Below are positions 2,556 to 59,633 of a stretch of DNA of 64,000 bases, piece after piece (positions within the stretch are counted from its first letter, which is position 1; each line of letters opens with the position of its first letter). The translations under genes and the position numbers were made by a program. The notes below the pieces were generated by a model. That model saw nothing but the letters and a program-made list of their open reading frames with translations, made no database searches and was not told the origin of the DNA. Source of the stretch: Eledone cirrhosa (lineage: Eukaryota); assembly GCA_964016885.1 (NCBI GenBank), contig OZ024766.1, positions 14,508,001-14,572,000 of the forward strand, written 5' to 3'.

Positions 2556-2693
2556 CTTTCTGACAACTGTTTCTTTCATAACCTGGAGCACATCTACCCC
2601 TTGAACAGATCCCTAATTCCACATTACACCTGTTGTTATCTTCACAATGACACACCTGATCACAGTTGGCACCAAGTCTTCCACTACTGCACA
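2556..2693 (-). CDS. EGF-like exon copy 1 (G41R variant): VCSSGRLGANCDQVCHCEDNNRCNVELGICSRGRCAPGYERNSCQK
   Basis: Polypyrimidine tract + cag at 2696-2694, gt at 2555-2554; 138 nt, phase 1-1, 8 Cys. Confidence 0.9.
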
Positions 2694-4182
2694 CTGTAAC
2701 AGGAAAACATTGGTGTAGATCAGGGATTGCCAACTTCTTTGCCTCCATGGGCCGGACGAACGCCATAAAAGAATAATTATGGAAAATTACACAAGCTAAA
2801 ATTTAATCTCGAGTGTTGACTATACTATTCATTTCTCAAATCTTGAATTATATTCACAAATACCTCTGAATCCTGTGATTTCCCTCCTTGAAATGATGGA
2901 AAATGCACATAATTTTTATTTCAAAGTTGATGTTCCCACAACTGTAGCTTTTTTTCAAAGACAACAATATGGTTATACATTTCATTTACGAGCTGTGTTT
3001 TACCTTGAAGTTGTAAATTTAAGTTATTTAACCCTTTAGCACTTACATTACTCTATATTTACTATTGTAATGTCACAGTAAACACTTTATCTTATATAGT
3101 TATCTCACATAATATTGAATCTATGAGATTTTGATATTATTTATTTTGAGAAGAATACCTTAACGTCAGTATGAGTGGCTAGTTACAGCCGGTTTGAACA
3201 GAAAAAAGTGAGAGATTTCTGGCCGGATATGGCCGGTTTAAATGCTAAAGGGTTAAACGAGTCACAATATCCTCAATAAATACCAAAGTTGTAACAGCAG
3301 GCCTTTTATTGTATTCGAAAGGAATAATACGTATTATTCTTTTATAATCTTTTATAATCTCTATAATTGTATTATTCTTTATCGAAAGGTTGTGAGTTCA
3401 ATTCTCCGACCGGTTAATGTGTTGTTTCCTTGAGCAAGACACTTTATTTCAAATTGCTCCAGTTTACTCAGCTGTAGAAATGAGATGATAGGGACTGGAG
3501 TCCCTATCATTCCACTGTAAAGTGGTCGTAGAGGTGCCACGGCAAAAAATCACCCAGCACTCACTGTAAATGAGGTTGGTTTTAGGAAGGGCATCAAGCT
3601 GTAGAAATCAAGCCAGAATCAGTTCCTGTCCCACTCTTGCAAGCAGGGAAAAGGGGACGTAAAATGAAATGATTTCATAATTCAGGGGTTGATAAAATAT
3701 AGTACCAGTGATATCCTGGAGTAGATTTAATAGAATAGCTTAACACACACTCACATATATATATATATCTACTAACCAAAGTATCGCGTGATCTGGTGCG
3801 TTATGGTCCACCTCGTTCCTTACCATACTTCCTACCACACACACACATATATAGATATATACTTATAAATATATACAGAATAAGGAGCAGGTATTACAAT
3901 AACCTGGGGTTCAAGGGCCCTCACCTCTTCAACAAGCTGCCAAGGAATTTGAGAGATCTGCATGGTGTGGACGTGGATGTTTTCAAGGAACATCTCGACA
4001 CCCTGTTACCAGGATCCTGGATGAGCCCACAGCATGGTTCGAAGGTAACCTAAGGGCAGCAACAACGAACCCCCTCTTTGCCAAATGGCCAACCAACACA
4101 GGTTGGAGAAAGAATGTGTAACAAGGGCATGCCCCAGCATGGCCTCAACTGGATCGCTGGAACACGTTAAAAGAGTAAAAGA

Positions 4183-4215
<33 letters not shown>

Positions 4216-4834
4216 GTAGGAGGTGAGTTTTATTGTAGTACAATAAAGCAATGCAGATATCGGATAAGAAGCACTCTACAGTTTGTAGGACTGGAGTATA
4301 CATAATATAAGATCAAAAGATGGTTAAAGGAGTTCCATGTATTTTATTATGCGCATTTAAAACTGCACTATCCACAAGTGTTTTTTTAGCCTTCATATCA
4401 TGTTCTCCTGTTTTATCTGATGAAAACACAAATATTATTGCATGATGATGTTTGTTTTTGAAATGCGCATAATAAAATACATGGAACTCCTTTAACCATC
4501 TTTTGATCTTATATTATATATACATATATATATATTTATATTTATATTTCTGGCTATTTCTGGCTGTCGATGGTCCTATTCAGGCCACTGGGATGACGTT
4601 GTTCAACGAGTGTATTTTTAAAAAAATGCAACAAGTGGTTCAAATCATTCGCAGATTTGCATTTGCTGTGTAAACGCAGATGGTTATTTTTCTTCTCATT
4701 TGGTGAACATCCAAGAATTTAACTGCTGTGATTTACGGATTAATAGGTGAAATATATTTCTTACTTAAAGAGCCAGGAACCCAACGGCTGAGCTCCGGCC
4801 AGAGATCAGCAGTTGGGGTCCTGACTCTTTTCCT

Positions 4835-4885
<51 letters not shown>

Positions 4886-7800
4886 ACGAAGGAAATGTGG
4901 TAAGGAACCAGGTGGACCATAACGCACCAAAGTACTCAATACTTGAGGTAGTAGAGTGGGTAATAGGAACCTTATTATATATTTATATATATATATATAT
5001 AAATAATATATTAATAAATGGAAACTATATTTATAAAACCATATTTATTTTATTATACATATTTCAAGGGCAACCAAGGCAAACTGTTGAGTGCTTTATA
5101 TCAGTTATAAAAATGTTTAAGCTTATTGAATCCCAACAAATTAAATATAACCTCTGCATATATATATATTTATATATATATATATAAATTTATATAATAC
5201 AACATTAGAATTACTACTACATTTTACTTTCTATCTCTGTCTCTCACATCTCTTTCTCTCCCTCTATCTCCCTCTCTCGATATCCCTCTCTTTCTCTCAC
5301 CCCCCTCTCTCTCTCTATCTCTCTCTATCTCTCCTCCTGTCTCTCCCATACACTTACCTAAGGTCATGTAATTTAACTGGGTGTGACTTTCTCAAAAGTT
5401 AATACAAAGACTTGCTTTCAACTGACAGAAACATAGCTACAATGTTGCACACTCATATCATGTGTCTGTATGGCTGACTGCCTGAACTTCATACAGAAAT
5501 AAAAAACCCCACACAACCAACATTCTGGGGTTGATAAAATATAATTGTTTCTAATTATATTGACTAATTATATTTACGAATAATATTGACTAATAATATT
5601 GACTAATTATATTGACTAATTATATTTACTAATAATATTGACTAATAATATTGACTAATTATATTGACTAATTATATTGACTAATTATATTGACTAATTA
5701 TATTTACTAATAATATTGACTAATAATATTGACTAATTATATTTACTAATAATATTGACTAATAATATTGACTTATTATATTGACTAATTATATTGACTA
5801 ATTATATTGACTAATTATATTGACTAATTATATTTACTAATAATATTGACTAATTATATTTACTAATAATATTGACTAATTATATTGACTAATTATATTG
5901 ACTAATTATATTTACTAATTATATTTACTAATAATATTGACTAATAATATTGACTAATTATATTGACTAATTATATTGACTAATTATATTTACTAATAAT
6001 ATTGACTAATAATATTGACTAATTATATTGACTAATTATATTGACTAATTATATTGACTAATTATATTGACTAATAATATTAACTAATAATATTAACTAA
6101 ATAATATTAACTATCAAGGGCGGTGGATTGGCAGTATCGGTATAAGGTCGGACGCCGTGCTTTCCAGCATAGTTACGTCCCTTTACGATCTGAGTTCAAA
6201 TCCCGCCGAGGTAGACTTTGCCTTTCATCCTTACGGGGTCGATAAAATAAAGTACCAGTTATGCACTGGGTAATTGCTGGCCTTGTGCCTAAAGTAGAAA
6301 CAATTATTAGTAAATATAATTAGTTAATATTATTAGTTAATATAATTAGTTAATATTATTAGTTAATATTATTAGTCAATAATAATATTAATGGCAGTGG
6401 ATTGGCAGTATCAGTGGAGGGTCGGACGCCATGCTTTGATGCATAGAGTTACGGCCCTTGCCATTCTGAGTTCAAATCCCACCGAGGTTAACTTTGCCTT
6501 TCATCCTTACGGGGTCGATAAAATAAAGTAGCAGTAATTCACTGGGGTAATTGCTGGCCTTGTGCCTAACGTAGAAACAATTATTAACTAATATTTCTAA
6601 CTAATAATATTGATTGTTGACTAGAAATTTAGAGATTATTTTAATGGTTTCTGATTTAGATGCAAGGCCAACACATTTGGGGAAGGGGTGTTGATTGACC
6701 CCAGTATGTTACTGGTACTTTATTTTATCAACCCAGTAAGGATGAAAGGCAAAGCTTACCTTGATGGGATTTGAACTCAGAACGTAAAGGGCCGTAACTG
6801 GGTTCAAATCCTACTGAAGTTATAGCTCTGGCTTTCATCCTAACAGGGTTGATAAAGTAAAGTACCAGTAACGTACTGGGGTTGATAAAGTAAAGTACCT
6901 GTAACGTTCTTGGGTTGATAAAGTAAGGTACCAGTAATGTACTGGGGTTGATAAAGTAAAGTACCAGTAATGTACTGGGTTTGATAAAGTAAAGTACCAG
7001 TAACGTACTGGGGTTGATAAAGTAAAGTACCAGTAATGTACGGGGGGTTGATAAAGTAAGGTACCAGTAATGTACTGGGGTTGATAAAGTAAAGTACCAG
7101 TAATGTACTGGGGTTGATAAGGTAAAGTACCTGTAACGTTCTTGGGTTGATAAAGTAAGGTACCAGTAATGTACTGGGGTTGATAAAGTAAAGTACCAGT
7201 AATGTACTGGGTTTGATAAAGTAAAGTATCAGTAACGTACTGGGGTTGATAAAGTAAAGTACCAGTAATGTACTGGGGTTGATAAAGTAAAGTACCAGTA
7301 ACGTACTGGTGTTGATAAAGTAAAGTACCAGTAAAGTACTGGGGTTGACAAAATAAAGTACCAGTAATGTACTGGGATTGATAAAATAAAGTACCAGTAA
7401 TGTACTGGGGTTGATAAAATAAAGTACCTGGAATGGTGAGAGATAAAAGCTGAGATATGAAAATAACTAACCTTTCTGACAACTGTTTCCTTCATAACCT
7501 GGAGCACATCTACCCCTTGAACAGATCCCTAATTCCACATTACACCTGTTGTTATCTTCACAATGACACACCTGATCACAGTTGGCACCAAGTCTTCCAC
7601 TACTGCACACTGTAACAGGAAAACATTGGTGTAGATCAGGGATTGCCAACTTCTTTGCCTCCATGGGCCGGACGAACGCCATAAAAGAATAATTATGGAA
7701 AATTACACAAGCTAAAATTTTTATCTCGAGTGTCGACTATACTATTCATTTCTCAAATCTTGAATTATATTCACAAATACCTCTGAATCCTGTGATTTCC

Positions 7801-9753
7801 CTCCTTGAAATGATGGAAAATGCACATAATTTTTATTTCAAAGTTGATGTTCCCACAACTGTAGCTTTTTTTCAAAGGCAACAATATGGTTATACATTTC
7901 ATTTACGAGCTGAGTTTTACCTTGAAGTTGTAAATTTAAGTTATTTAACCCTTTAGCACTTACATTACTCTATATTTACTATTGTAATGTCACAGTAAAC
8001 ACTTTATCTTATATAGTTATCTCACATAATATTGAATCTATGAGATTTTGATATTATTTATTTTGAGAAGAATACCTTAACGTCAGTATGAGTGGCTAGT
8101 TACAGCCGGTTTGAACAGAAAAAAGTGAGAGATTTCTGGCCGGATATGGCCGGTTTAAATGCTAAAGGGTTAAACGATTCACAATATCCTCAATAAATAC
8201 CAAAGTTGTAACAGCAGGCCTTTTATTGTATTCGAAAGGAATAATACGTATTATTCTTTTATAATCTTTTATAATCTCTATAATTGTATTATTCTTTATC
8301 GAAAGGTTGTGAGTTCAATTCTCCGACCGGTTAATGTGTTGTTTCCTTGAGCAAGACACTTTATTTCAAATTGCTCCAGTTTACTCAGCTGTAGAAATGA
8401 GATGATAGGGACTGGGGTCCCTATCATTCCACTGTAAAGTGGTCCTAGAGGTGCCACGGCAAAAAATCACCCAGCACTCACTGTAAATGAGGTTGGTTTT
8501 AGGAAGGGCATCAAGCTGTAGAAATCAAGCCAGAATCAGTTCCTGTCCCACTCTTGCAAGCAGGGAAAAGGGGACGTAAAATGAAATGATTTCATAATTC
8601 AGGGGTTGATAAAATATAGTACCAGTGATATCCTGGGGTAGATTTAATAGAATAGCTTAACTCGCACTCACATATATATATATCTACTAACCAAAGTATC
8701 GCGTGATCTGGTGCGTTATGGTCCACCTCGTTCCTTACCATACTTCCTACCACACACACACACACACACATATATAGATATATACTTATAAATATATACA
8801 GAATAAGGAGCAGGTATTACAATAACCTGGGGTTCAAGGGCCCTCACCTCTTCAACAAGCTGCCAAGGAATTTGAGAGATCTGCATGGTGTGGACGTGGA
8901 TGTTTTCAAGGAACATCTCGACACCCTGTTACCAGGATCCTGGATGAGCCCACAGCATGGTTCGAAGGTAACCTAAGGGCAGCAACAACGAACCCCCTCT
9001 TTGCCGAATGGCCAACCAACACAGGTTGGAGAAAGAATGTGTAACAAGAGCATGCCCCAGCATGGCCTCAACTGGATCGCTGGAACACGTTAAAAGAGAA
9101 AAAGAGAATATATATATATATATATACATATAATGTAGGAGGTGAGTTTTATTGTGGTACAATAAAGCAATGCAGATATCGGATAAGAAGCACTCTACAG
9201 TTTGTAGGACTGGAGTATACATAATATAAGATCAAAAGATGGTTAAAGGAGTTCCATGTATTTTATTATGCGCATTTAAAACTGCACTATCCACAAGTGT
9301 TTTTTTAGCCTTCATATCATGTTCTCCTGTTTTATCTGATGAAAACACAAATATTATTGCATGATGATGTTTGTTTTTGAAATGCGCATAATAAAATACA
9401 TGGAACTCCTTTAACCATCTTTTGATCTTATATTATATTTACATATATATATATTTATATTTATATTTCTGGCTATTTCTGGCTGTCGATGGTCCTATTC
9501 AGGCCACTGGGATGACGTTGTTCAACGAGTGTATTTTTAAAAAAATGCAACAAGTGGTTCAAATCATTCGCAGATTTGCATTTGCTGTGTAAACGCAGAT
9601 GGTTATTTTTCTTCTCATTTGGTGAACATCCAAGAATTTAACTGCTGTGATTTACGGATTAATAGGTGAAATATATTTCTTACTTAAAGAGCCAGGAACC
9701 CAACGGCTGAGCTCCGGCCAGAGATCAGCAGTTGGGGTCCTGACTCTTTTCCT

Positions 9754-9808
<55 letters not shown>

Positions 9809-12800
9809 ACGAAGGAAATGTGGTAAGGAACCAGGTGGACCATAACGCACCAAAGTACTCAATACTTGAGGTAGTAGAGTGGGTAATAGGAACCTTATTA
9901 TATATTTATATATATATATATATAAATAATATATTAATAAATGGAAACTATATTTATAAAACCATATTTATTTTATTATACATATTTCAAGGGCAACCAA
10001 GGCAAACTGTTGAGTGCTTTATATCAGTTATAAAAATGTTTAAGCTTATTGAATCCCAACAAATTAAATATAACCTCTGCATATATATATATTTATATAT
10101 ATATATATAAATATATATAATACAACATTAGAATTACTACTACATTTTACTTTCTATCTCTGTCTCTCACATCTCTTTCTCTCCCTCTATCTCCCTCTCT
10201 CGATATCCCTCTCTTTCTCTCACCCCCCTCTCTCTCTCTATCTCTCTCTATCTCTCCTCCTGTCTCTCCCATACACTTACCTAAGGTCATGTAATTTAAC
10301 TGGGTGTGACTTTCTCTAAAAGTTAATACAAAGACTTGCTTTCAACTGACAGAAACATAGCTACAATGTTGCACACTCATATCATGTGTCTGTATGGCTG
10401 ACTGCCAGAACTTCATACAGAAATAAAAAACCCACACAACCAACATTCTGGGGTTGATAAAATATAATTGTTTCTAATTATATTGACTAATTATATTTAC
10501 GAATAATATTGACTAATAATATTGACTAATAATATTGACTAATTATATTGACTAATTATATTTACTAATAATATTGACTAATAATATTGACTAATAATAT
10601 TGACTAATTATATTGACTAATTATATTTACTAATAATATTGACTAATAATATTGACTAATAATATTGACTAAGTATATTTACTAATAATATTGACTAATA
10701 ATATTGACTTATTATATTGACTAATTATATTGACTAATTATATTGACTAATTATATTGACTAATTATATTGACTAATTATATTGACTAATAATATTGACT
10801 AATTATATTTACTAATAATATTGACTAATTATATTGACTAATTATATTTACTAATTATATTTACTAATAATATTTACTAATAATATTGACTAATAATATC
10901 GACTAATTATATTGACGAATTATATTGACTAATTATATTTACTAATTATATTGACTAATTATATTGACTAATTATATTTACTAATTATATTGACTAATTA
11001 TATTTACTAATAATAGTAACTAATTATATGAACTAATAATTGTTTCTACGTTAGGAACAAGGCCAGCAATTACCCAGTACATTACTGGTACTTTATTTTA
11101 TCGACCCCGTAAGGATGAAAGGCAAAGTTAACCTCATTAACTAATTATATTGACTAATTATATTAACTAATAATATTAACTAATATTATCACCTAATAAT
11201 ATTAACTAATAACATTCACTAATTATATTAACTAATAATATTAACTAATATTATCATCTAATAATATTCACTAATAATTTAAATAATTTTTACATTAGGC
11301 ACAAGGCCAGCAATTACCCCAGTGTATTACTGGTACTTTATTTTATCAACCCCGTAAGGATGAAAGGCAAAGTTAACCTCGGCGGGATTTGAATTAGTTA
11401 ATATTATTCGGTGGATTGGCAGTATTGTTGGAGCGTCGGACGCCTTGCTTTGATGCATAGAGTTATATAATTAGTAAATATTATTAGTTAATATTATTAG
11501 TTAATATTATTTAGTTAATATTATTAGTTAATATTATTAGTCAATATAATTAGTTAATATTATTAGTTAATATAATTAGTTAATATTATTAGTTAATATT
11601 ATTAGTCAATAATAACATTAATGGCAGTGGATTGGCAGTATCAGTGGAGGGTCGGACGCCATGCTTTGATGCATAGAGTTACGGCCCTTGCCATTCTGAG
11701 TTCAAATCCCACCGAGGTTAACTTTGCCTTTCATCCTTACGGGGTCGATAAAATAAAGTAGCAGTAATTCACTGGGGTAATTGCTGGCCTTGTGCCTAAC
11801 GTAGAAACAATTATTAACTAATATTACTAACTAATAATATTGATTGTTGACTAGAAATTTAGAGATTATTTTAATGGTTTCTGATTTAGATGCAAGGCCA
11901 ACACATTTGGGGAAGGGGTGTTGATTGACCCCAGTGTGTTACTGGTACTTTATTTTATCAACCCAGTAAGGATGAAAGGCAAAGCTTACCTTGATGGGAT
12001 TTGAACTCAGAACGTAAAGGGCCGTAACTGGGTTCAAATCCTACTGAAGTTATAGCTCTGGCTTTCATCCTAACAGGGTTGATAAAGTAAAGTACCAGTA
12101 ACGTACTGGGGTTGATGAAGTAAAGTACCTGTAACGTTCTTGGGTTGATAAAGTAAGGTACCAGTAATGTACTGGGGTTGATAAAGTAAAGTACCAGTAA
12201 TGTACTGGGGTTGATAAAGTAAAGCACCAGTAACGTACTGGGGTTGATAAAGTAAAGTACCAGTAATGTACTGGGGTTGATAAAGTAAAGTACCAGTAAT
12301 GTACTGGGTTTGATAAAGTAAAGTATCAGTAACGTACTGGGGTTGATAAAGTAAAGTACCAGTAACGTACTGGGGTTGATAAAGTAAAGTACCAGTAATG
12401 TACGGGGGTTGATAAAGTAAAGTACCAGTAACGTACTGGGGTTGATAAAGTAAAGTACCAGTAATGTACTGGGGTTGATAAAGTAAAGTACCAGTAATGT
12501 ACTGGGTTTGATAAAGTAAAGTATCAGTAACGTACTGGGGTTGATAAAGTAAAGTACCAGTAACGTACTGGGGTTGATAAAGTAAAGTACCAGTAATGTA
12601 CGGGGGTTGATAAAGTAAAGTACCAGTAACGTACTGGGGTTGATAAAGTAAAGTACCAGTAATGTACTGGGGTTGATAAAGTAAAGTACCAGTAACGTAC
12701 TGGGGTTGATAAAATAAAGTACCAGTAATGTACTGGGATTGATAAAATAAACTACCAGTAACGTACTGGGGTTGATAAAGTAAAGTACCAGGAATGTACT

Positions 12801-14567
12801 GGGGTTGATAAAGTAAAGTACCAGTAATGTACTGGGGTTGATAAAATAAAGTACCAGTAATGTACTGGGGTTGACAAAATAAAGTACCTGGACTGGTGAG
12901 AGATAAAAGCTGAGATATGAAAATAACTAACCTTTCTGACAACTGTTTCCTTCATAACCTGGAGCACATCTACCCCTTGAACAGATCCCTAATTCCACAT
13001 TACACCTGTTGTTATCTTCACAATGACACACCTGATCACAGTTGGCACCAAGTCTTCCACTACTGCACACTGTAACAGGAAAACATTGGTGTAGATCAGG
13101 GATTGCCAACTTCTTTGCCTCCATGGGCCGGACGAACGCCATAAAAGAATAATTATGGAAAATTACACAAGCTAAAATTTTTATCTCGAGTGTCGACTAT
13201 ACTATTCATTTCTCAAATCTTGAATTATATTCACAAATACCTCTGAATCCTGTGATTTCCCTCCTTGAAATGATGGAAAATGCACATAATTTTTATTTCA
13301 AAGTTGATGTTCCCACAACTGTAGCTTTTTTTCAAAGGCAACAATATGGTTATACATTTCATTTACGAGCTGAGTTTTACCTTGAAGTTGTAAATTTAAG
13401 TTATTTAACCCTTTAGCACTTACATTACTCTATATTTACTATTGTAATGTCACAGTAAACACTTAATTTTATATAGTTATCTCACATAATATTGAATCTA
13501 TAAGATTTTGATATTATTTATTTTGAGAAGAATACCTTAACGTCAGTATGAGTGGCTAGTTACAGCCGGTTTGAACAGAAAAAAGTGAGAGATTTCTGGC
13601 CGGATATGGCCGGTTTAAATGCTAAAGGGTTAAACGAGTCACAATATCCTCAATAAATACCAAAGTTGTAACAGCAGGCCTTTTATTGTATTCGAAAGGA
13701 ATAATACGTATTATTCTTTTATAATCTTTTATAATCTCTATAATTGTATTATTCTTTATCGAAAGGTTGTGAGTTCAATTCTCCGACCGGTTAACGTGTT
13801 GTTTCCTTGAGCAAACACTTTATTTCAAATTGCTCCAGTTTACTCAGCTGTAGAAATGAGATGATAGGGACTGGAGTCCCTATCATTCCACTGTAAAGTG
13901 GTCGTAGCGGTGCCACGGCAAAAAATCACCCAGCACTCACTGTAAATGAGGTTGGTTTTAGGAAGGGCATCAAGCTGTAGAAATCAAGCCAGAATCAGTT
14001 CCTGTCCCACTCTTGCAAGCAGGGAAAAGGGGACGTAAAATGAAATGATTTCATAATTCAGGGGTTGATAAAATATAGTACCAGTGATATCCTGGGGTAG
14101 ATTTAATAGAATAGCTTAACACACACTCACATATATATATATATCTACTAACCAAAGTATCGCGTGATCTGGTGCGTTATGGTCCACCTCGTTCCTTACC
14201 ATACTTCCTACCACACACACACACACACATATATAGATATATACTTATAAATATATACAGAATAAGGAGCAGGTATTACAATAACCTGGGGTTCAAGGGC
14301 CCTCACCTCTTCAACAAGCTGCCAAGGAATTTGAGAGATCTGCACGGTGTGGACGTGGATGTTTTCAAGGAACATCTCGACACCCTGTTACCAGGATCCT
14401 GGATGAGCCCACAGCATGGTTCGAAGGTAACCTAAGGGCAGCAACAACGAACCCCCTCTTTGCCGAATGGCCAACCAACACAGGTTGGAGAAAGAATGTG
14501 TAACAAGGGCATGCCCCAGCATGGCCTCAACTGGATCGCTGGAACACGTTAAAAGAGTCAAAGAGAA

Positions 14568-14598
<31 letters not shown>

Positions 14599-15271
14599 TT
14601 ATATTTATATTTCTGGCTATTTCTGGCTGTCGATGGTCCTATTCAGGCCACTGGGATGACGTTGTTCAACGAGTGTATTTTTAAAAAATGCAACACGTGG
14701 TTCAAATCATTCGCAGATTTGCATTTGCTGTGTAAACGCAGATGGTTATTTTTCTTCTCATTTGGTGAACATCGAAGAATTTAACTGCTGTGATTTACGG
14801 ATTAATAGGTGAAATATATTTCTTACTTAAAGAAATATATACAAAGGAGATTAATCATTTTAAAAGGTATCTATATTTGAAGTTCTAGTCAAGCTTTAAT
14901 TAGTTACCTACCTAGCTATGTGTGCCTACATTCTTTACAAATTATTCCCTGTGATTGTTTCATGTATTTATTATATATATATATATATATGTCAATCTAT
15001 TTCTAGTTGATATGTAATGCTCGGATCTAATCTTTCAGCTTATTCTACGCATGGCGCATGTCTCTCAGACATGACAACCCTTAGTTTTAATTTTGGATAT
15101 ATATATATATACATATATGTATATATATATATGTGTGTGTGTGTGTATATATATATATATCTCAGAGTACTCAATACTTAGGGTAGAAGAGTGGGTAATA
15201 GGAAAAGAGCCAGGAACCCAACAGCTGAGCTCTGGCCAGAGATCAGCAGTTGGGGTCCTGACTCTTTTCCT

Positions 15272-15308
<37 letters not shown>

Positions 15309-15449
15309 TAAATGGAAACTATATTTATAAAACCATATTTATTTTATTATACATATTTCAAGGCAAACAAGGCAAACTGTTGAGTGCTTTATATCAGTTA
15401 TAAACATTTTTAAGCTTATTGAATCCCAACAAATTAAATATAACCTCTG

Positions 15450-15480
<31 letters not shown>

Positions 15481-20672: not shown

Positions 20673-20726
<54 letters not shown>

Positions 20727-20849
20727 ATATATATATATCTCAGAGTACTCAATACTTAGGGTAGAAGAGTGGGTAATAGGAAAAGAGCATGGAACCCAAC
20801 AGCTGAGCTCTGGCCAGAGATCAGCAGTTGGGGTCCTGACTCTTTTCCT

Positions 20850-20912
<63 letters not shown>

Positions 20913-21051
20913 TAAATGGAAACTATATTTATAAAACTATATTTATTTTATTATACATATTTCAAGGCAACCAAGGCAAACTGTTGAGTGCTTTATATCA
21001 GTTATAAACATTTTTAAGCTTATTGAATCCCAACAAATTAAATATAACCTC

Positions 21052-21086
<35 letters not shown>

Positions 21087-36602: not shown

Positions 36603-36691
<89 letters not shown>

Positions 36692-41063: not shown

Positions 41064-41094
<31 letters not shown>

Positions 41095-41390
41095 TTATAT
41101 TTATATTTCTGGCTATTTCTGGCTGTCCATGGTCCTATTCAGGCCACTGGGATGACGTTCAACGAGTGTATTTTTTAAAAAATGCAACACGTGGTTCAAA
41201 TCATTCGCAGATTTGCATTTGCTGTGTAAACGCAGATGGTTATTTTTCTTCTCATTTGGTGAACATCCAAGAATTTAACTGCTGTGATTTACGGATTAAT
41301 AGGTGAAATATATTTCTTACTTAAAGAGCCAGGAACCCAACGGCTGAGCTCCGGCCAGAGATCAGCAGTTGGGGTCCTGACTCTTTTCCT

Positions 41391-41423
<33 letters not shown>

Positions 41424-41576
41424 AATAATATATTAATAAATGGAAACTATATTTATAAAACCATATTTATTTTATTATACATATTTCAAGGGCAACCAAG
41501 GCAAACTGTTGAGTGCTTTATATCAGTTATAAAAATGTTTAAGCTTATTGAATCCCAACAAATTAAATATAACCTC

Positions 41577-41621
<45 letters not shown>

Positions 41622-46199: not shown

Positions 46200-46278
<79 letters not shown>

Positions 46279-49200: not shown

Positions 49201-50746
49201 TATCTTCACAATGACACACCTGATCACAGTTGGCACCAAGTCTTCCACTACTGCACACTGTAACAGGAAAACATTGGTGTAGATCAGGGATTGGCAACTT
49301 CTTTGCCTCCATGGGCCGGACGAACGCCATAAAAGAATAATTATGGAAAATTACACAAGCTAAAATTTAATCTCGAGTGTTGACTATACTATTCATTTCT
49401 CAAATCTTGAATTATATTCACAAATACCTCTGAATCCTGTGATTTCCCTCCTTGAAATGATGGAAAATGCACATAATTTTTATTTCAAAGTTGATGTTCC
49501 CACAACTGTAGCTTTTTTTCAAAGACAACAATATGGTTATACATTTCATTTACGAGCTGTGTTTTACCTTGAAGTTGTAAATTTAAGTTATTTAACCCTT
49601 TAGCACTTACATTACTCTATATTTACTATTGTAATGTCACAGTAAACACTTTATCTTATATAGTTATCTCACATAATATTGAATCTATGAGATTTTGATA
49701 TTATTTATTTTGAGAAGAATACCTTAACGTCAGTATGAGTGGCTAGTTACAGCCGGTTTGAACAGAAAAAAGTGAGAGATTTCTGGCCGGATATGGCCGG
49801 TTTAAATGCTAAAGGGTTAAACGAGTCACAATATCCTCAATAAATACCAAAGTTGTAACAGCAGGCCTTTTATTGTATTCGAAAGGAATAATACGTATTA
49901 TTCTTTTATAATCTTTTATAATCTCTATAATTGTATTATTCTTTATCGAAAGGTTGTGAGTTCAATTCTCCGACCGGTTAATGTGTTGTTTCCTTGAGCA
50001 AGACACTTTATTTCAAATTGCTCCAGTTTACTCAGCTGTAGAAATGAGATGATAGGGACTGGAGTCCCTATCATTCCACTGTAAAGTGGTCGTAGAGGTG
50101 CCACGGCAAAAAATCACCCAGCACTCACTGTAAATGAGGTTGGTTTTAGGAAGGGCATCAAGCTGTAGAAATCAAGCCAGAATCAGTTCCTGTCCCACTC
50201 TTGCAAGCAGGGAAAAGGGGACGTAAAATGAAATGATTTCATAATTCAGGGGTTGATAAAATATAGTACCAGTGATATCCTGGAGTAGATTTAATAGAAT
50301 AGCTTAACACACACTCACATATATATATATATCTACTAACCAAAGTATCGCGTGATCTGGTGCGTTATGGTCCACCTCGTTCCTTACCATACTTCCTACC
50401 ACACACACACATATATAGATATATACTTATAAATATATACAGAATAAGGAGCAGGTATTACAATAACCTGGGGTTCAAGGGCCCTCACCTCTTCAACAAG
50501 CTGCCAAGGAATTTGAGAGATCTGCATGGTGTGGACGTGGATGTTTTCAAGGAACATCTCGACACCCTGTTACCAGGATCCTGGATGAGCCCACAGCATG
50601 GTTCGAAGGTAACCTAAGGGCAGCAACAACGAACCCCCTCTTTGCCAAATGGCCAACCAACACAGGTTGGAGAAAGAATGTGTAACAAGGGCATGCCCCA
50701 GCATGGCCTCAACTGGATCGCTGGAACACGTTAAAAGAGTAAAAGA

Positions 50747-50779
<33 letters not shown>

Positions 50780-51398
50780 GTAGGAGGTGAGTTTTATTGT
50801 AGTACAATAAAGCAATGCAGATATCGGATAAGAAGCACTCTACAGTTTGTAGGACTGGAGTATACATAATATAAGATCAAAAGATGGTTAAAGGAGTTCC
50901 ATGTATTTTATTATGCGCATTTAAAACTGCACTATCCACAAGTGTTTTTTTAGCCTTCATATCATGTTCTCCTGTTTTATCTGATGAAAACACAAATATT
51001 ATTGCATGATGATGTTTGTTTTTGAAATGCGCATAATAAAATACATGGAACTCCTTTAACCATCTTTTGATCTTATATTATATATACATATATATATATT
51101 TATATTTATATTTCTGGCTATTTCTGGCTGTCGATGGTCCTATTCAGGCCACTGGGATGACGTTGTTCAACGAGTGTATTTTTAAAAAAATGCAACAAGT
51201 GGTTCAAATCATTCGCAGATTTGCATTTGCTGTGTAAACGCAGATGGTTATTTTTCTTCTCATTTGGTGAACATCCAAGAATTTAACTGCTGTGATTTAC
51301 GGATTAATAGGTGAAATATATTTCTTACTTAAAGAGCCAGGAACCCAACGGCTGAGCTCCGGCCAGAGATCAGCAGTTGGGGTCCTGACTCTTTTCCT

Positions 51399-51449
<51 letters not shown>

Positions 51450-54400
51450 ACGAAGGAAATGTGGTAAGGAACCAGGTGGACCATAACGCACCAAAGTACT
51501 CAATACTTGAGGTAGTAGAGTGGGTAATAGGAACCTTATTATATATTTATATATATATATATATAAATAATATATTAATAAATGGAAACTATATTTATAA
51601 AACCATATTTATTTTATTATACATATTTCAAGGGCAACCAAGGCAAACTGTTGAGTGCTTTATATCAGTTATAAAAATGTTTAAGCTTATTGAATCCCAA
51701 CAAATTAAATATAACCTCTGCATATATATATATTTATATATATATATATAAATTTATATAATACAACATTAGAATTACTACTACATTTTACTTTCTATCT
51801 CTGTCTCTCACATCTCTTTCTCTCCCTCTATCTCCCTCTCTCGATATCCCTCTCTTTCTCTCACCCCCCTCTCTCTCTCTATCTCTCTCTATCTCTCCTC
51901 CTGTCTCTCCCATACACTTACCTAAGGTCATGTAATTTAACTGGGTGTGACTTTCTCAAAAGTTAATACAAAGACTTGCTTTCAACTGACAGAAACATAG
52001 CTACAATGTTGCACACTCATATCATGTGTCTGTATGGCTGACTGCCTGAACTTCATACAGAAATAAAAAACCCCACACAACCAACATTCTGGGGTTGATA
52101 AAATATAATTGTTTCTAATTATATTGACTAATTATATTTACGAATAATATTGACTAATAATATTGACTAATTATATTGACTAATTATATTTACTAATAAT
52201 ATTGACTAATAATATTGACTAATTATATTGACTAATTATATTGACTAATTATATTGACTAATTATATTTACTAATAATATTGACTAATAATATTGACTAA
52301 TTATATTTACTAATAATATTGACTAATAATATTGACTTATTATATTGACTAATTATATTGACTAATTATATTGACTAATTATATTGACTAATTATATTTA
52401 CTAATAATATTGACTAATTATATTTACTAATAATATTGACTAATTATATTGACTAATTATATTGACTAATTATATTTACTAATTATATTTACTAATAATA
52501 TTGACTAATAATATTGACTAATTATATTGACTAATTATATTGACTAATTATATTTACTAATAATATTGACTAATAATATTGACTAATTATATTGACTAAT
52601 TATATTGACTAATTATATTGACTAATTATATTGACTAATAATATTAACTAATAATATTAACTAAATAATATTAACTATCAAGGGCGGTGGATTGGCAGTA
52701 TCGGTATAAGGTCGGACGCCGTGCTTTCCAGCATAGTTACGTCCCTTTACGATCTGAGTTCAAATCCCGCCGAGGTAGACTTTGCCTTTCATCCTTACGG
52801 GGTCGATAAAATAAAGTACCAGTTATGCACTGGGTAATTGCTGGCCTTGTGCCTAAAGTAGAAACAATTATTAGTAAATATAATTAGTTAATATTATTAG
52901 TTAATATAATTAGTTAATATTATTAGTTAATATTATTAGTCAATAATAATATTAATGGCAGTGGATTGGCAGTATCAGTGGAGGGTCGGACGCCATGCTT
53001 TGATGCATAGAGTTACGGCCCTTGCCATTCTGAGTTCAAATCCCACCGAGGTTAACTTTGCCTTTCATCCTTACGGGGTCGATAAAATAAAGTAGCAGTA
53101 ATTCACTGGGGTAATTGCTGGCCTTGTGCCTAACGTAGAAACAATTATTAACTAATATTTCTAACTAATAATATTGATTGTTGACTAGAAATTTAGAGAT
53201 TATTTTAATGGTTTCTGATTTAGATGCAAGGCCAACACATTTGGGGAAGGGGTGTTGATTGACCCCAGTATGTTACTGGTACTTTATTTTATCAACCCAG
53301 TAAGGATGAAAGGCAAAGCTTACCTTGATGGGATTTGAACTCAGAACGTAAAGGGCCGTAACTGGGTTCAAATCCTACTGAAGTTATAGCTCTGGCTTTC
53401 ATCCTAACAGGGTTGATAAAGTAAAGTACCAGTAACGTACTGGGGTTGATAAAGTAAAGTACCTGTAACGTTCTTGGGTTGATAAAGTAAGGTACCAGTA
53501 ATGTACTGGGGTTGATAAAGTAAAGTACCAGTAATGTACTGGGTTTGATAAAGTAAAGTACCAGTAACGTACTGGGGTTGATAAAGTAAAGTACCAGTAA
53601 TGTACGGGGGGTTGATAAAGTAAGGTACCAGTAATGTACTGGGGTTGATAAAGTAAAGTACCAGTAATGTACTGGGGTTGATAAGGTAAAGTACCTGTAA
53701 CGTTCTTGGGTTGATAAAGTAAGGTACCAGTAATGTACTGGGGTTGATAAAGTAAAGTACCAGTAATGTACTGGGTTTGATAAAGTAAAGTATCAGTAAC
53801 GTACTGGGGTTGATAAAGTAAAGTACCAGTAATGTACTGGGGTTGATAAAGTAAAGTACCAGTAACGTACTGGTGTTGATAAAGTAAAGTACCAGTAAAG
53901 TACTGGGGTTGACAAAATAAAGTACCAGTAATGTACTGGGATTGATAAAATAAAGTACCAGTAATGTACTGGGGTTGATAAAATAAAGTACCTGGAATGG
54001 TGAGAGATAAAAGCTGAGATATGAAAATAACTAACCTTTCTGACAACTGTTTCCTTCATAACCTGGAGCACATCTACCCCTTGAACAGATCCCTAATTCC
54101 ACATTACACCTGTTGTTATCTTCACAATGACACACCTGATCACAGTTGGCACCAAGTCTTCCACTACTGCACACTGTAACAGGAAAACATTGGTGTAGAT
54201 CAGGGATTGCCAACTTCTTTGCCTCCATGGGCCGGACGAACGCCATAAAAGAATAATTATGGAAAATTACACAAGCTAAAATTTTTATCTCGAGTGTCGA
54301 CTATACTATTCATTTCTCAAATCTTGAATTATATTCACAAATACCTCTGAATCCTGTGATTTCCCTCCTTGAAATGATGGAAAATGCACATAATTTTTAT

Positions 54401-56317
54401 TTCAAAGTTGATGTTCCCACAACTGTAGCTTTTTTTCAAAGGCAACAATATGGTTATACATTTCATTTACGAGCTGAGTTTTACCTTGAAGTTGTAAATT
54501 TAAGTTATTTAACCCTTTAGCACTTACATTACTCTATATTTACTATTGTAATGTCACAGTAAACACTTTATCTTATATAGTTATCTCACATAATATTGAA
54601 TCTATGAGATTTTGATATTATTTATTTTGAGAAGAATACCTTAACGTCAGTATGAGTGGCTAGTTACAGCCGGTTTGAACAGAAAAAAGTGAGAGATTTC
54701 TGGCCGGATATGGCCGGTTTAAATGCTAAAGGGTTAAACGATTCACAATATCCTCAATAAATACCAAAGTTGTAACAGCAGGCCTTTTATTGTATTCGAA
54801 AGGAATAATACGTATTATTCTTTTATAATCTTTTATAATCTCTATAATTGTATTATTCTTTATCGAAAGGTTGTGAGTTCAATTCTCCGACCGGTTAATG
54901 TGTTGTTTCCTTGAGCAAGACACTTTATTTCAAATTGCTCCAGTTTACTCAGCTGTAGAAATGAGATGATAGGGACTGGGGTCCCTATCATTCCACTGTA
55001 AAGTGGTCCTAGAGGTGCCACGGCAAAAAATCACCCAGCACTCACTGTAAATGAGGTTGGTTTTAGGAAGGGCATCAAGCTGTAGAAATCAAGCCAGAAT
55101 CAGTTCCTGTCCCACTCTTGCAAGCAGGGAAAAGGGGACGTAAAATGAAATGATTTCATAATTCAGGGGTTGATAAAATATAGTACCAGTGATATCCTGG
55201 GGTAGATTTAATAGAATAGCTTAACTCGCACTCACATATATATATATCTACTAACCAAAGTATCGCGTGATCTGGTGCGTTATGGTCCACCTCGTTCCTT
55301 ACCATACTTCCTACCACACACACACACACACACATATATAGATATATACTTATAAATATATACAGAATAAGGAGCAGGTATTACAATAACCTGGGGTTCA
55401 AGGGCCCTCACCTCTTCAACAAGCTGCCAAGGAATTTGAGAGATCTGCATGGTGTGGACGTGGATGTTTTCAAGGAACATCTCGACACCCTGTTACCAGG
55501 ATCCTGGATGAGCCCACAGCATGGTTCGAAGGTAACCTAAGGGCAGCAACAACGAACCCCCTCTTTGCCGAATGGCCAACCAACACAGGTTGGAGAAAGA
55601 ATGTGTAACAAGAGCATGCCCCAGCATGGCCTCAACTGGATCGCTGGAACACGTTAAAAGAGAAAAAGAGAATATATATATATATATATACATATAATGT
55701 AGGAGGTGAGTTTTATTGTGGTACAATAAAGCAATGCAGATATCGGATAAGAAGCACTCTACAGTTTGTAGGACTGGAGTATACATAATATAAGATCAAA
55801 AGATGGTTAAAGGAGTTCCATGTATTTTATTATGCGCATTTAAAACTGCACTATCCACAAGTGTTTTTTTAGCCTTCATATCATGTTCTCCTGTTTTATC
55901 TGATGAAAACACAAATATTATTGCATGATGATGTTTGTTTTTGAAATGCGCATAATAAAATACATGGAACTCCTTTAACCATCTTTTGATCTTATATTAT
56001 ATTTACATATATATATATTTATATTTATATTTCTGGCTATTTCTGGCTGTCGATGGTCCTATTCAGGCCACTGGGATGACGTTGTTCAACGAGTGTATTT
56101 TTAAAAAAATGCAACAAGTGGTTCAAATCATTCGCAGATTTGCATTTGCTGTGTAAACGCAGATGGTTATTTTTCTTCTCATTTGGTGAACATCCAAGAA
56201 TTTAACTGCTGTGATTTACGGATTAATAGGTGAAATATATTTCTTACTTAAAGAGCCAGGAACCCAACGGCTGAGCTCCGGCCAGAGATCAGCAGTTGGG
56301 GTCCTGACTCTTTTCCT

Positions 56318-56372
<55 letters not shown>

Positions 56373-59300
56373 ACGAAGGAAATGTGGTAAGGAACCAGGT
56401 GGACCATAACGCACCAAAGTACTCAATACTTGAGGTAGTAGAGTGGGTAATAGGAACCTTATTATATATTTATATATATATATATATAAATAATATATTA
56501 ATAAATGGAAACTATATTTATAAAACCATATTTATTTTATTATACATATTTCAAGGGCAACCAAGGCAAACTGTTGAGTGCTTTATATCAGTTATAAAAA
56601 TGTTTAAGCTTATTGAATCCCAACAAATTAAATATAACCTCTGCATATATATATATTTATATATATATATATAAATATATATAATACAACATTAGAATTA
56701 CTACTACATTTTACTTTCTATCTCTGTCTCTCACATCTCTTTCTCTCCCTCTATCTCCCTCTCTCGATATCCCTCTCTTTCTCTCACCCCCCTCTCTCTC
56801 TCTATCTCTCTCTATCTCTCCTCCTGTCTCTCCCATACACTTACCTAAGGTCATGTAATTTAACTGGGTGTGACTTTCTCTAAAAGTTAATACAAAGACT
56901 TGCTTTCAACTGACAGAAACATAGCTACAATGTTGCACACTCATATCATGTGTCTGTATGGCTGACTGCCAGAACTTCATACAGAAATAAAAAACCCACA
57001 CAACCAACATTCTGGGGTTGATAAAATATAATTGTTTCTAATTATATTGACTAATTATATTTACGAATAATATTGACTAATAATATTGACTAATAATATT
57101 GACTAATTATATTGACTAATTATATTTACTAATAATATTGACTAATAATATTGACTAATAATATTGACTAATTATATTGACTAATTATATTTACTAATAA
57201 TATTGACTAATAATATTGACTAATAATATTGACTAAGTATATTTACTAATAATATTGACTAATAATATTGACTTATTATATTGACTAATTATATTGACTA
57301 ATTATATTGACTAATTATATTGACTAATTATATTGACTAATTATATTGACTAATAATATTGACTAATTATATTTACTAATAATATTGACTAATTATATTG
57401 ACTAATTATATTTACTAATTATATTTACTAATAATATTTACTAATAATATTGACTAATAATATCGACTAATTATATTGACGAATTATATTGACTAATTAT
57501 ATTTACTAATTATATTGACTAATTATATTGACTAATTATATTTACTAATTATATTGACTAATTATATTTACTAATAATAGTAACTAATTATATGAACTAA
57601 TAATTGTTTCTACGTTAGGAACAAGGCCAGCAATTACCCAGTACATTACTGGTACTTTATTTTATCGACCCCGTAAGGATGAAAGGCAAAGTTAACCTCA
57701 TTAACTAATTATATTGACTAATTATATTAACTAATAATATTAACTAATATTATCACCTAATAATATTAACTAATAACATTCACTAATTATATTAACTAAT
57801 AATATTAACTAATATTATCATCTAATAATATTCACTAATAATTTAAATAATTTTTACATTAGGCACAAGGCCAGCAATTACCCCAGTGTATTACTGGTAC
57901 TTTATTTTATCAACCCCGTAAGGATGAAAGGCAAAGTTAACCTCGGCGGGATTTGAATTAGTTAATATTATTCGGTGGATTGGCAGTATTGTTGGAGCGT
58001 CGGACGCCTTGCTTTGATGCATAGAGTTATATAATTAGTAAATATTATTAGTTAATATTATTAGTTAATATTATTTAGTTAATATTATTAGTTAATATTA
58101 TTAGTCAATATAATTAGTTAATATTATTAGTTAATATAATTAGTTAATATTATTAGTTAATATTATTAGTCAATAATAACATTAATGGCAGTGGATTGGC
58201 AGTATCAGTGGAGGGTCGGACGCCATGCTTTGATGCATAGAGTTACGGCCCTTGCCATTCTGAGTTCAAATCCCACCGAGGTTAACTTTGCCTTTCATCC
58301 TTACGGGGTCGATAAAATAAAGTAGCAGTAATTCACTGGGGTAATTGCTGGCCTTGTGCCTAACGTAGAAACAATTATTAACTAATATTACTAACTAATA
58401 ATATTGATTGTTGACTAGAAATTTAGAGATTATTTTAATGGTTTCTGATTTAGATGCAAGGCCAACACATTTGGGGAAGGGGTGTTGATTGACCCCAGTG
58501 TGTTACTGGTACTTTATTTTATCAACCCAGTAAGGATGAAAGGCAAAGCTTACCTTGATGGGATTTGAACTCAGAACGTAAAGGGCCGTAACTGGGTTCA
58601 AATCCTACTGAAGTTATAGCTCTGGCTTTCATCCTAACAGGGTTGATAAAGTAAAGTACCAGTAACGTACTGGGGTTGATGAAGTAAAGTACCTGTAACG
58701 TTCTTGGGTTGATAAAGTAAGGTACCAGTAATGTACTGGGGTTGATAAAGTAAAGTACCAGTAATGTACTGGGGTTGATAAAGTAAAGTACCAGTAACGT
58801 ACTGGGGTTGATAAAGTAAAGTACCAGTAATGTACTGGGGTTGATAAAGTAAAGTACCAGTAATGTACTGGGTTTGATAAAGTAAAGTATCAGTAACGTA
58901 CTGGGGTTGATAAAGTAAAGTACCAGTAACGTACTGGGGTTGATAAAGTAAAGTACCAGTAATGTACGGGGGTTGATAAAGTAAAGTACCAGTAACGTAC
59001 TGGGGTTGATAAAGTAAAGTACCAGTAATGTACTGGGGTTGATAAAGTAAAGTACCAGTAATGTACTGGGTTTGATAAAGTAAAGTATCAGTAACGTACT
59101 GGGGTTGATAAAGTAAAGTACCAGTAACGTACTGGGGTTGATAAAGTAAAGTACCAGTAATGTACGGGGGTTGATAAAGTAAAGTACCAGTAACGTACTG
59201 GGGTTGATAAAGTAAAGTACCAGTAATGTACTGGGGTTGATAAAGTAAAGTACCAGTAACGTACTGGGGTTGATAAAATAAAGTACCAGTAATGTACTGG

Positions 59301-59633
59301 GATTGATAAAATAAACTACCAGTAACGTACTGGGGTTGATAAAGTAAAGTACCAGGAATGTACTGGGGTTGATAAAGTAAAGTACCAGTAATGTACTGGG
59401 GTTGATAAAATAAAGTACCAGTAATGTACTGGGGTTGACAAAATAAAGTACCTGGACTGGTGAGAGATAAAAGCTGAGATATGAAAATAACTAACCTTTC
59501 TGACAACTGTTTCCTTCATAACCTGGAGCACATCTACCCCTTGAACAGATCCCTAATTCCACATTACACCTGTTGTTATCTTCACAATGACACACCTGAT
59601 CACAGTTGGCACCAAGTCTTCCACTACTGCACA
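2556..59633 (-). CDS. Internal part of a multi-exon gene encoding a multiple-EGF-like-repeat protein (MEGF10/CED-1/Draper/SCARF-type repeats); 12 exons, 552 aa if all are joined
   Basis: Twelve 138-nt exons, each with acceptor tgttttcctgttacag and donor AAAG|gttagt. Joining G+TG gives Val and keeps the frame. The orthologue cannot be named because no start, transmembrane or cytoplasmic exon is visible. Confidence 0.8.
3028..3256. mobile_element. piggyBac-type MITE (~221 bp) with TTAA target-site duplication, present in every unit
   Basis: ttaa-CCCTTTAGCA (3028-3041) ... TGCTAAAGGG-ttaa (3243-3256). Confidence 0.8.
3385..3675 (+). mobile_element. Degenerate or composite SINE remnants of a second type
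   Basis: B-box-like gagttcaattc followed by tccttgagcaagacacttt; later ttaggaagggcatc...ctgtagaaa and the tail ggacgtaaaatgaaatgat. Family recognised from memory only. Confidence 0.6.
3876..4184 (+). mobile_element. 5'-truncated LINE (CR1/L2-like) 3' end: ORF2 C-terminus remnant plus 3' UTR, present in every unit
   Basis: Translates RIRSRYYNNLGFKGPHLFNKLPRNLRDLHGVDVDVFKEHLDTLL, then frameshifts (cctggatgagccc, a DEP-like motif). Ends ccccagcatggcc...taaaagagtaaaaga and lies between (TA)n tracts. Confidence 0.75.
4212..4517 (+). mobile_element. Penelope-like element pLTR fragment with a 57-bp inverted repeat, inserted in (TA)n; present after exons 1, 2, 4, 5, 7, 9, 10 and 11
   Basis: 4302-4358 is the exact reverse complement of 4461-4517. 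The fragment contains a minimal hammerhead motif. Inverted partial pLTRs and hammerheads are known features of Penelope-like elements. Confidence 0.65.
4411..4477 (+). ncRNA. Minimal type I hammerhead ribozyme motif (copy after exon 1)
   Basis: Stem I ttttat (4411-16); CTGATGA (4417-23); stem II 4424-4459 (15 of 16 positions pair, including G-U, with a 4-nt loop); GAAA (4460-63); palindromic tgcgca; UH = TA (4470-71); stem I ataaaa (4472-77). Confidence 0.8.
6118..6306 (+). mobile_element. Additional full SINE copy found only before exons 2, 7, 9 and 11
   Basis: gggcggtggattggcagtatcgg...gagttcaaatcccgccgaggtagactttgcctttcatcc...gaaacaatt; also at ~32871, 42569 and 52682. Confidence 0.85.
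6845..7429 (+). repeat. 33-bp minisatellite, ~17.7 copies (same length at 43296-43880 and 53409-53993)
   Basis: Direct periodicity. Confidence 0.95.
7472..7609 (-). CDS. EGF-like exon copy 2 (consensus, ...GYEGNSCQK)
   Basis: Same splice sites, open frame. Confidence 0.9.
9330..9396 (+). ncRNA. Hammerhead motif (after exon 2)
   Basis: Same sequence as 4411-4477. Confidence 0.8.
12075..12889 (+). repeat. 33-bp minisatellite, ~24.7 copies (same length at 23164-23978 and 58639-59453)
   Basis: Direct periodicity. Confidence 0.95.
12932..13069 (-). CDS. EGF-like exon copy 3 (consensus)
   Basis: Same splice sites, open frame. Confidence 0.9.
15198..15273. repeat. ~76-bp imperfect palindrome, with a truncated form in most units (e.g. 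4767-4830)
   Basis: ataggaaaagagccaggaacccaacagctgagctctgg|ccagagatcagcagttggggtcctgactcttttcctat. Confidence 0.85.
17402..18150 (+). repeat. 33-bp minisatellite, ~22.7 copies
   Basis: Direct periodicity. Confidence 0.95.
18193..18330 (-). CDS. EGF-like exon copy 4 (E26Q plus synonymous CAG>CAA at Q13)
   Basis: Same splice sites; ORF track shows NVQLG; + strand reads acacttgatc instead of acacctgatc. Confidence 0.9.
20049..20115 (+). ncRNA. Hammerhead motif (after exon 4), one stem II substitution
   Basis: Core intact; aaataatattgc instead of aaatattattgc. Confidence 0.78.
24021..24158 (-). CDS. EGF-like exon copy 5 (C11R, 7 Cys)
   Basis: Same splice sites; TGT>CGT, ORF track shows GANRDQ. 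Confidence 0.88.
25876..25942 (+). ncRNA. Hammerhead motif (after exon 5)
   Basis: Same sequence as 4411-4477. Confidence 0.8.
28943..29625 (+). repeat. 33-bp minisatellite, ~20.7 copies
   Basis: Direct periodicity. Confidence 0.95.
29668..29805 (-). CDS. EGF-like exon copy 6 (consensus)
   Basis: Same splice sites, open frame. Confidence 0.9.
33597..34281 (+). repeat. 33-bp minisatellite, ~20.7 copies
   Basis: Direct periodicity. Confidence 0.95.
34324..34461 (-). CDS. EGF-like exon copy 7 (consensus)
   Basis: Same splice sites, open frame. Confidence 0.9.
36179..36245 (+). ncRNA. Hammerhead motif (after exon 7)
   Basis: Same sequence as 4411-4477. Confidence 0.8.
39107..39393 (+). repeat. 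33-bp minisatellite, ~8.7 copies
   Basis: Direct periodicity. Confidence 0.95.
39436..39573 (-). CDS. EGF-like exon copy 8 (consensus)
   Basis: Same splice sites, open frame. Confidence 0.9.
43923..44060 (-). CDS. EGF-like exon copy 9 (consensus)
   Basis: Same splice sites, open frame. Confidence 0.9.
45776..45842 (+). ncRNA. Hammerhead motif (after exon 9)
   Basis: Same sequence as 4411-4477. Confidence 0.8.
49120..49257 (-). CDS. EGF-like exon copy 10 (G41R, as copy 1)
   Basis: Same splice sites; GYERNSC. Confidence 0.9.
50975..51041 (+). ncRNA. Hammerhead motif (after exon 10)
   Basis: Same sequence as 4411-4477. Confidence 0.8.
54036..54173 (-). CDS. EGF-like exon copy 11 (consensus)
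   Basis: Same splice sites, open frame. Confidence 0.9.
55894..55960 (+). ncRNA. Hammerhead motif (after exon 11)
   Basis: Same sequence as 4411-4477. Confidence 0.8.
59496..59633 (-). CDS. EGF-like exon copy 12 (consensus)
   Basis: Same splice sites, open frame. Confidence 0.9.

Follow-up and report, generated by a model that had tools for sequence, protein, structure and literature searches.

A homogenised, probably expressed array of one EGF-module exon and its intron in Eledone cirrhosa

When a single exon recurs a dozen times together with some 5 kb of intron, is it the coding core of a long protein or a satellite that has carried an exon along? We asked this of a 64,000-nt stretch of Eledone cirrhosa DNA (assembly GCA_964016885.1, contig OZ024766.1, positions 14,508,001 to 14,572,000 of the forward strand; hereafter the window), in which one exon encoding an EGF module is repeated in tandem. 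The array is real, well formed and probably expressed, and its most distinctive feature is a higher-order period. With modest confidence, we read it as a homogenised EGF exon and intron array within an expressed mollusc MEGF-type extracellular or receptor gene, encoding a long disulfide-bonded stalk.

Anatomy of the array

The minus strand of the window carries exactly 12 copies of one 138-nt exon, arranged head to tail. Every copy has an identical pyrimidine-rich acceptor ending in CAG upstream and a GT donor downstream, in phase 1-1, and the 12 exons concatenated give an open frame without a stop. A sequence-only reading of the window had proposed 12 intact copies with AG/GT sites and no stop or frameshift, four variant sites and near-identical introns, and all of this was reproduced. 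The features are listed here with the exons in order of transcription; the first base of each copy, by which we refer to it below, is the higher coordinate of its line.

59496..59633, minus strand: EGF-module exon, copy 1, majority allele
54036..54173, minus strand: exon copy 2, majority allele
49120..49257, minus strand: exon copy 3, Gly>Arg at exon position 120 (Pfam score 19.1 vs 22.9 bits)
43923..44060, minus strand: exon copy 4, majority allele
39436..39573, minus strand: exon copy 5, majority allele
34324..34461, minus strand: exon copy 6, majority allele
29668..29805, minus strand: exon copy 7, majority allele
24021..24158, minus strand: exon copy 8, Cys>Arg at exon position 30, one of 8 cysteines lost (invariant in the family alignment)
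18193..18330, minus strand: exon copy 9, one synonymous change and Glu>Gln
12932..13069, minus strand: exon copy 10, higher-order repeat of copy 1
7472..7609, minus strand: exon copy 11, higher-order repeat of copy 2, reference copy for comparison with public contigs
2556..2693, minus strand: exon copy 12, higher-order repeat of copy 3, same Gly>Arg
1..17413: higher-order repeat block, first copy (period ~46,564 bp, 9 units; 99.85% identical to 46565-64000)
46565..64000: higher-order repeat block, second copy (99.85% identical to 1-17413)
2694..7471, minus strand: a complete intron as example, with pieces resembling transposable elements, AT/TC microsatellites, 13-mer and 33-mer variable-number tandem repeats (VNTRs) and no second EGF exon
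6846..7435: 33-mer VNTR starting 36 nt past the splice donor, 6.6-24.6 copies across units, with sequence in common with short interspersed nuclear element (SINE)-like pieces of the intron
5551..6113: 13-mer VNTR, main block, 26-61 copies across units
7945..8174: inverted-repeat element resembling a miniature inverted-repeat transposable element (MITE), high-copy elsewhere in the same organism; most of 3011 records of run X1 map here, with loose ends at both borders

Eight of the 12 exon copies are identical, and exactly four sites vary overall: exon position 30 in copy 24158 only, positions 38 (the synonymous change) and 75 (Glu>Gln) in copy 18330, and position 120 in copies 49257 and 2693. 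The nine-unit period makes exon copies 10-12 near-exact repeats of copies 1-3, leaving only nine independent units; the earlier tally of 12 stands as a count, the 46.6-kb period having been missed. Units are 4487-5828 bp long, and differ in length mostly through the 13-mer and 33-mer VNTRs, microsatellites and a few indel blocks of 40-300 bp. Outside the VNTRs, introns of different units are ~99.1% identical. Among the nine independent units the mean divergence is 0.86% over 2089 intron columns and 0.64% in the exon. The intron statistics exclude masked repeats, every column lying 10 or fewer positions from a gap or mask, 30 nt at the edge of a microsatellite and, because they are duplicates, units 10-11. 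Exon and intron are thus both homogenised to ~99%, in keeping with the concerted expansion that the sequence-only reading envisaged. A chance origin of the exon repetition is excluded, and the locus has the make-up of LPA KIV-2/DMBT1-type arrays: a multi-kb tandem unit of a frame-preserving exon plus its intron, both homogenised.

The window is AT-rich and of animal-type composition (~32% G+C). Both of its flanks (1-2555 and 59634-64000) are array introns, so the window sits wholly within the array, and a tblastn search of it returned the 12 known copies and no additional or diverged EGF exon. Should the period continue, further copies are predicted to start ~900 bases beyond the right end of the window and ~2,500 before its left end. 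We rejected tandem whole genes, the unit having no apparent start, signal or terminal exon. A second coding exon per unit was likewise rejected: there is no further EGF exon, and the long open frames traverse the 33-mer VNTR, with the proviso that a micro-exon would escape this search.

The encoded module and its splicing

Each exon encodes a 46-aa, 8-cysteine module of the laminin-type/PEAR1-like EGF class, as found in invertebrate MEGF-type proteins in the broad sense. Pfam EGF families match it below their curated cut-offs (best E 1.1e-4); SCARF1 is the sole match in a PDB sequence search (E 0.011); Atlas places it in laminin-EGF/PEAR1-like clusters (0.92); and a search of representative proteins gave 219 matches at E<=0.001, of which 150 are listed. 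The proposed MEGF/SCARF-like character of the module is borne out by all four of these, while the protein searches suggested alongside it yielded EGF families and MEGF-type relatives, with Pfam scores that stayed under the cut-offs. All 8 cysteines are invariant in family alignment A1, and the best of 352 single units compared, from the Octopus sinensis receptor P0169, is 60% identical. Six short fragments from other sources, each apparently a single exon, have roughly these module borders at their two ends. A structure model of middling confidence (predicted local distance difference test 75.8, predicted template-modelling score 0.46), a Foldseek search with no match at E<=0.001 and SCARF1 first at E 0.23, and one weak VIA match (Z 2.1) were not used as proof.

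Sixteen of the 20 relatives looked up carry names, either MEGF6/10/11-like, draper-like, EGF-phosphatase or hypothetical, and come from molluscs, amphioxus and a sea star. Beyond the EGF modules they differ, with phosphatase, galactose-binding, fibrinogen, FN3 or seven-transmembrane domains. The premise that repeats of this kind are normally very divergent from each other did not hold across the family: units at least 90% identical occur in 15 of the 56 listed invertebrate relatives with two or more pattern-matched units, four or more such units in 7 of the 56, and an exact repeated 20-mer in 43 of the 150 listed relatives. The premise does hold for human SCARF1 and mostly for octopus paralogs, whose units are largely divergent. 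The relatives with near-identical repeats are gene predictions from assemblies and carry the same assembly caveat as the array. In the chiton protein XP_064596704, which has a 46-aa period, a transmembrane-like segment and a phosphatase, 12 of 15 units have a partner at least 90% identical. Long near-identical runs of EGF or other repeats also mark the amphioxus, chiton and oyster models KAI8487025 (P0001), KAI8519535 (P0002), XP_064596704 (P0003) and XP_056003593 (P0086), whose ends are very different (seven-transmembrane, fibrinogen/TIR, phosphatase).

Seventeen public runs matched the window, none of them on record as RNA, which is evidence neither way. Organism A runs contain 76-86% of the sampled words; the lower-share runs look like traces, not relatives, and we drew no taxonomic range from them. 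Four runs (X1, X10, X11 and X12) were compared with positions 7436-8290. Run X1 contains one 140-nt contig that equals 7472-7611 exactly, without a difference: the exon plus two acceptor bases that it has in common with its own end. Depth in X1 is 145 on this contig and 22-24 in the intron. From the bin depths, ~96 units exit at the donor and ~75 enter at the acceptor by paths other than the intron, and the intron-side depth that this implies (23.2) agrees with that observed (23.4). Among the 12 copies, no position varies in the 36 nt before the exon or the 38 nt after it, so that DNA alone should give a 212-nt unitig once rare variants are dropped. A k=31 simulation returned just this from the window's DNA, and exactly 140 nt (-2 to 138) when spliced exon chains were added.

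Because the 140-nt contig is reproduced in simulation only with spliced molecules, splicing of the exon at both predicted sites is likely, as is the presence of spliced RNA in X1, whose recorded type is blank. In line with this, the assembled contigs of X1 total 88 Mb, against ~1,400 Mb for X2-X4 under the same organism label. X1 comes from the same study as the other best-matching runs and may be tied to the source of the assembly. The exon's proposed status as a spliced unit gains indirect support from contig borders, depth and simulation, whereas the exon-to-exon junction named as its test was absent from the joints listed (below). The remaining runs add little: X10 and X11 hold only 16 and 3 records, those displayed being of read length, at depth 2-4 and mostly on the MITE-like element, and X12, the only raw-read run compared, gave 1 read; contig depth is in any case no copy number. 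Among the differences listed between X1 and the window on 7436-8290, A>G occurs 18 times, T>C and G>A 7 times each and C>T 6 times, a profile unlike that of X10; the skew is a weak hint of adenosine-to-inosine editing in the MITE-like element, confounded by its many copies.

How many units, and how many in a transcript

Several results weigh against a long stalk built from the array. Being entirely array, the 64-kb window holds no flanking unique exon, signal peptide, transmembrane or catalytic exon. X1 is on record without a type and not as RNA, and its contigs cannot reveal RNA level or ends. No 7472-to-7609 self-joint occurs among the 15 X1 joints listed (11 further joints and 176 loose ends are obscured by the MITE-like element; six additional joints belong to it), so the neighbours of the spliced exon may be other exons. 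As for the type of host gene, among listed relatives of at least 400 aa (n=109) a phosphatase occurs in 17 and a galactose-binding domain in 27, only 40 of the 109 having either. No purifying selection is detectable among the copies, at low power: segregating sites number 4 of 138 in the exon and 51 of 2089 in the intron (p=0.77), the exon being not detectably more conserved, and three of the four exon changes are non-synonymous, compared with a neutral expectation of 81% (p=0.57). The change in copy 8 removes a cysteine that is invariant in the family. Shared variants, also at low power, number none in the exon and 25 in the intron (p=0.12 to 0.40). The uniformity of the copies reflects recent homogenisation and shows no selection for identity.

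Some of these observations speak for a reading that we consider rather unlikely, in which the exon is expressed in one or a few copies per mRNA, either because most copies are skipped or because the array is a runaway exon and intron satellite with a working copy at its edge or elsewhere. The missing self-joint, the lack of a selection signal and the cysteine-loss copy all suit it, as do the mostly divergent units of the octopus paralogs (the largest family at >=90% comprises 3 of 13 units). So does, as weak evidence, a word-index search covering proteins of 24-79 and 80-2000 aa, in which none shared three 5-mers with the unit. Against it, both splice sites and the frame are kept in 12 of 12 copies, and gene models of relatives place as many as 12 near-identical units in a single protein. 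A self-junction would also produce the contig break at acceptor -2, although the same break would follow from any upstream exon whose final AG is not preceded by C.

A second reading accepts the array and doubts its length. Positions 1-17413 and 46565-64000 are 99.85% identical, differing by three substitutions and two VNTR-length indels, and the 46.6-kb period may be genuine or may be a duplication introduced by the assembly, a further point against a stalk of the full apparent length. On the latter account, which we think unlikely and which is compatible with the stalk-encoding gene, the nine-unit repeat would be a false duplication arising from a haplotype switch or an unrolled loop. There are only five differences in 17.4 kb, four of them inside microsatellite or VNTR sequence, with one identical stretch of 9.5 kb, and a 46.6-kb period exceeds the usual length of accurate reads. 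The fifth difference, at position 2730, is an allele common to other units (8 vs 4 copies), which leans towards real exchange by conversion or crossover over random error. The nine units, moreover, differ pairwise at 6-29 intron sites plus indels, and hence many copies exist regardless. Least probable by far is that the spliced signal comes from single-exon back-splicing into circular RNA in an otherwise untranslated array: a circle would yield the same 140-nt unitig and would be favoured by the inverted SINE/MITE-like repeats present in the introns, but 138 nt is short for a single-exon circle, the non-intron flows are unequal (96 at the donor, 75 at the acceptor) and multi-unit proteins are known in relatives. 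Since back-splicing gives an identical junction, the self-junction is itself an ambiguous test of tandem joining.

The introns record how the units have exchanged sequence. Of 300 pairs formed by 25 informative intron sites, 132 fail the four-gamete test, requiring a minimum of nine exchanges among the nine units; such mosaic introns are the pattern expected from unequal crossing-over or conversion. Units 1-6 alternate between two intron types (6-8 differences within type A, 6-12 within type B, 13-19 between A and B). This alternation is suggestive only, with a permutation p of 0.054 over nine units; units 7-9 break the pattern, unit 7 as a mosaic and units 8 and 9 by their greater distance. 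A block of ~260 bp at 57812-57973 and equivalents, combining SINE-like and 13-mer VNTR sequence, is present in units 1, 3, 5 and 7-10 and absent from 2, 4, 6 and 11, and further blocks of 105-307 bp distinguish units 4, 6, 8 and 9.

In the stalk-encoding gene that we favour, unequal crossing-over between repeat-rich introns would have duplicated a symmetric exon, a frame-neutral event given its 1-1 phase. Later unequal exchange and gene conversion would then have maintained the likeness of both exon and intron while exchanging intron alleles among the units, as the observed mosaicism suggests. The likely order of amplification is monomer, A/B dimer, nine-unit block. With each exon the protein would gain a 46-aa module containing 8 cysteines, and the copies, if all were joined in one mRNA, would give the ectodomain of at least 550 aa proposed from the letters. 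SCARF1 and the mollusc MEGF/galactose-binding-domain receptors suggest, by analogy, that such modules may form a long rod; it would determine the valency of an N-terminal binding head and how far that head reaches, spacing it from the membrane or from other domains. Copy number is predicted to vary between alleles. A more specific version, which we regard as doubtful as a whole, is a cephalopod immune or adhesion receptor whose stalk derives from a satellite-like hierarchical array (monomer, A/B dimer, 9-mer) of >64 kb, with an ectodomain that changes by 1, 2 or 9 modules between alleles and so sets reach.

All units have in common the pieces resembling transposable elements that we examined (the MITE-like element, SINE-like pieces and a long interspersed nuclear element (LINE)-like fragment, all putative labels), and amplification therefore likely came later than their insertion. 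The MITE-like element at 7945-8174, found at the same place in other units, bears terminal inverted repeats; the concentration on it of most of the 3011 X1 contigs points to a very high-copy family in this organism. At ~3880-4140 on the plus strand, and at matching places in other units, lies a frame that we take to resemble the C-terminal end of a LINE reverse transcriptase. Within the 33-mer VNTR (6846-7435 and equivalents), two minus-strand frames stay open for 286-322 codons. Read-through from the exon stops one codon past the donor, so intron retention would yield a truncated product. Two sub-threshold Rfam microRNA matches fall in AT-rich intron sequence and were dismissed as chance.

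Comparison with known systems

MEGF10, CED-1, Draper and SCARF receptors are marked by an N-terminal EMI domain, a transmembrane helix and cytoplasmic tyrosine motifs. The array unit resembles SCARF1, MEGF10, CED-1, Draper and PEAR1 in its type of cysteine spacing, SCARF1 being the top match by sequence and, weakly, by fold; it differs in that their repeats are mutually divergent, and the end domains that define these families lie outside the window. In SCARF1, tandem modules form a long curved rod (PMC11563577; PDB 8HNA).

Closer in kind are the mollusc MEGF/galactose-binding-domain receptors (Octopus sinensis P0169, O. vulgaris CAI9733298/9, chiton XP_064596704), which have the same 8-cysteine pattern and, in the chiton, the same 46-aa period and near-identical units. 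The array unit is far more uniform than the octopus paralogs, and the window has no head, transmembrane or phosphatase exon. Mollusc receptor tyrosine phosphatases of this group, such as SudRes1 of Biomphalaria sudanica, combine a galactose-binding head, a single transmembrane helix and phosphatase domains, and the EGF-domain content of the snail proteins differs between parasite-resistant and susceptible haplotypes (PMC12297450), which makes length variation in the MEGF family plausible and relevant; the parts of that source drawn on describe no homogenised exon and intron array.

The gene design itself is already known from LPA KIV-2, DMBT1 and spider MaSp2, and homogenised exon and intron arrays have been best studied in a few human genes and spider silk. 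Our literature search, of incomplete coverage, found no description of a homogenised EGF exon and intron array in a mollusc; the concerted array of dumpy lies inside one large exon and is not its EGF part (PMC2930355). In Argiope MaSp2, exon and intron units are homogenised within the gene (mean 97.6%) with introns that sometimes alternate, and, to the knowledge of its authors, this was the only gene whose homogenised introns alternate (PMC9779670). The Eledone array suggests a like alternation, in units 1-6 only, with 5-kb introns rich in transposable elements and a folded module, whereas MaSp2 has small introns and encodes low-complexity silk.

DMBT1, an innate-recognition protein, has nested variable blocks of 1 and 4 domains and carries 7-20 domains in each molecule; its mutation rate has been measured (PMC4851238). 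Both it and the array repeat an extracellular cysteine-rich module in tandem; DMBT1 uses a scavenger receptor cysteine-rich module and comes with population data, the Eledone array uses an EGF module. Human LPA KIV-2 is an intragenic ~5.5-kb two-exon unit present in 1 to more than 40 copies (PMC4378929). The likeness to it that was proposed from the letters is supported as architecture: a tandem intragenic unit with introns, paralogous variants spread by duplication or conversion, and one disulfide module per unit (PMC4378929). LPA KIV-2 differs in its two exons, its kringle and its proven copy-number range, where the Eledone array has one exon, an EGF-type module and a nine-unit period. If our explanation is true, the array would provide a genomic mechanism for the runs of near-identical EGF modules that occur in many MEGF gene models of molluscs and amphioxus, and a warning that genes of this type are collapsed or inflated in assemblies. 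It would also add a receptor of polymorphic length to a family with known links to parasite resistance in snails, and would be an invertebrate equivalent of LPA and DMBT1.

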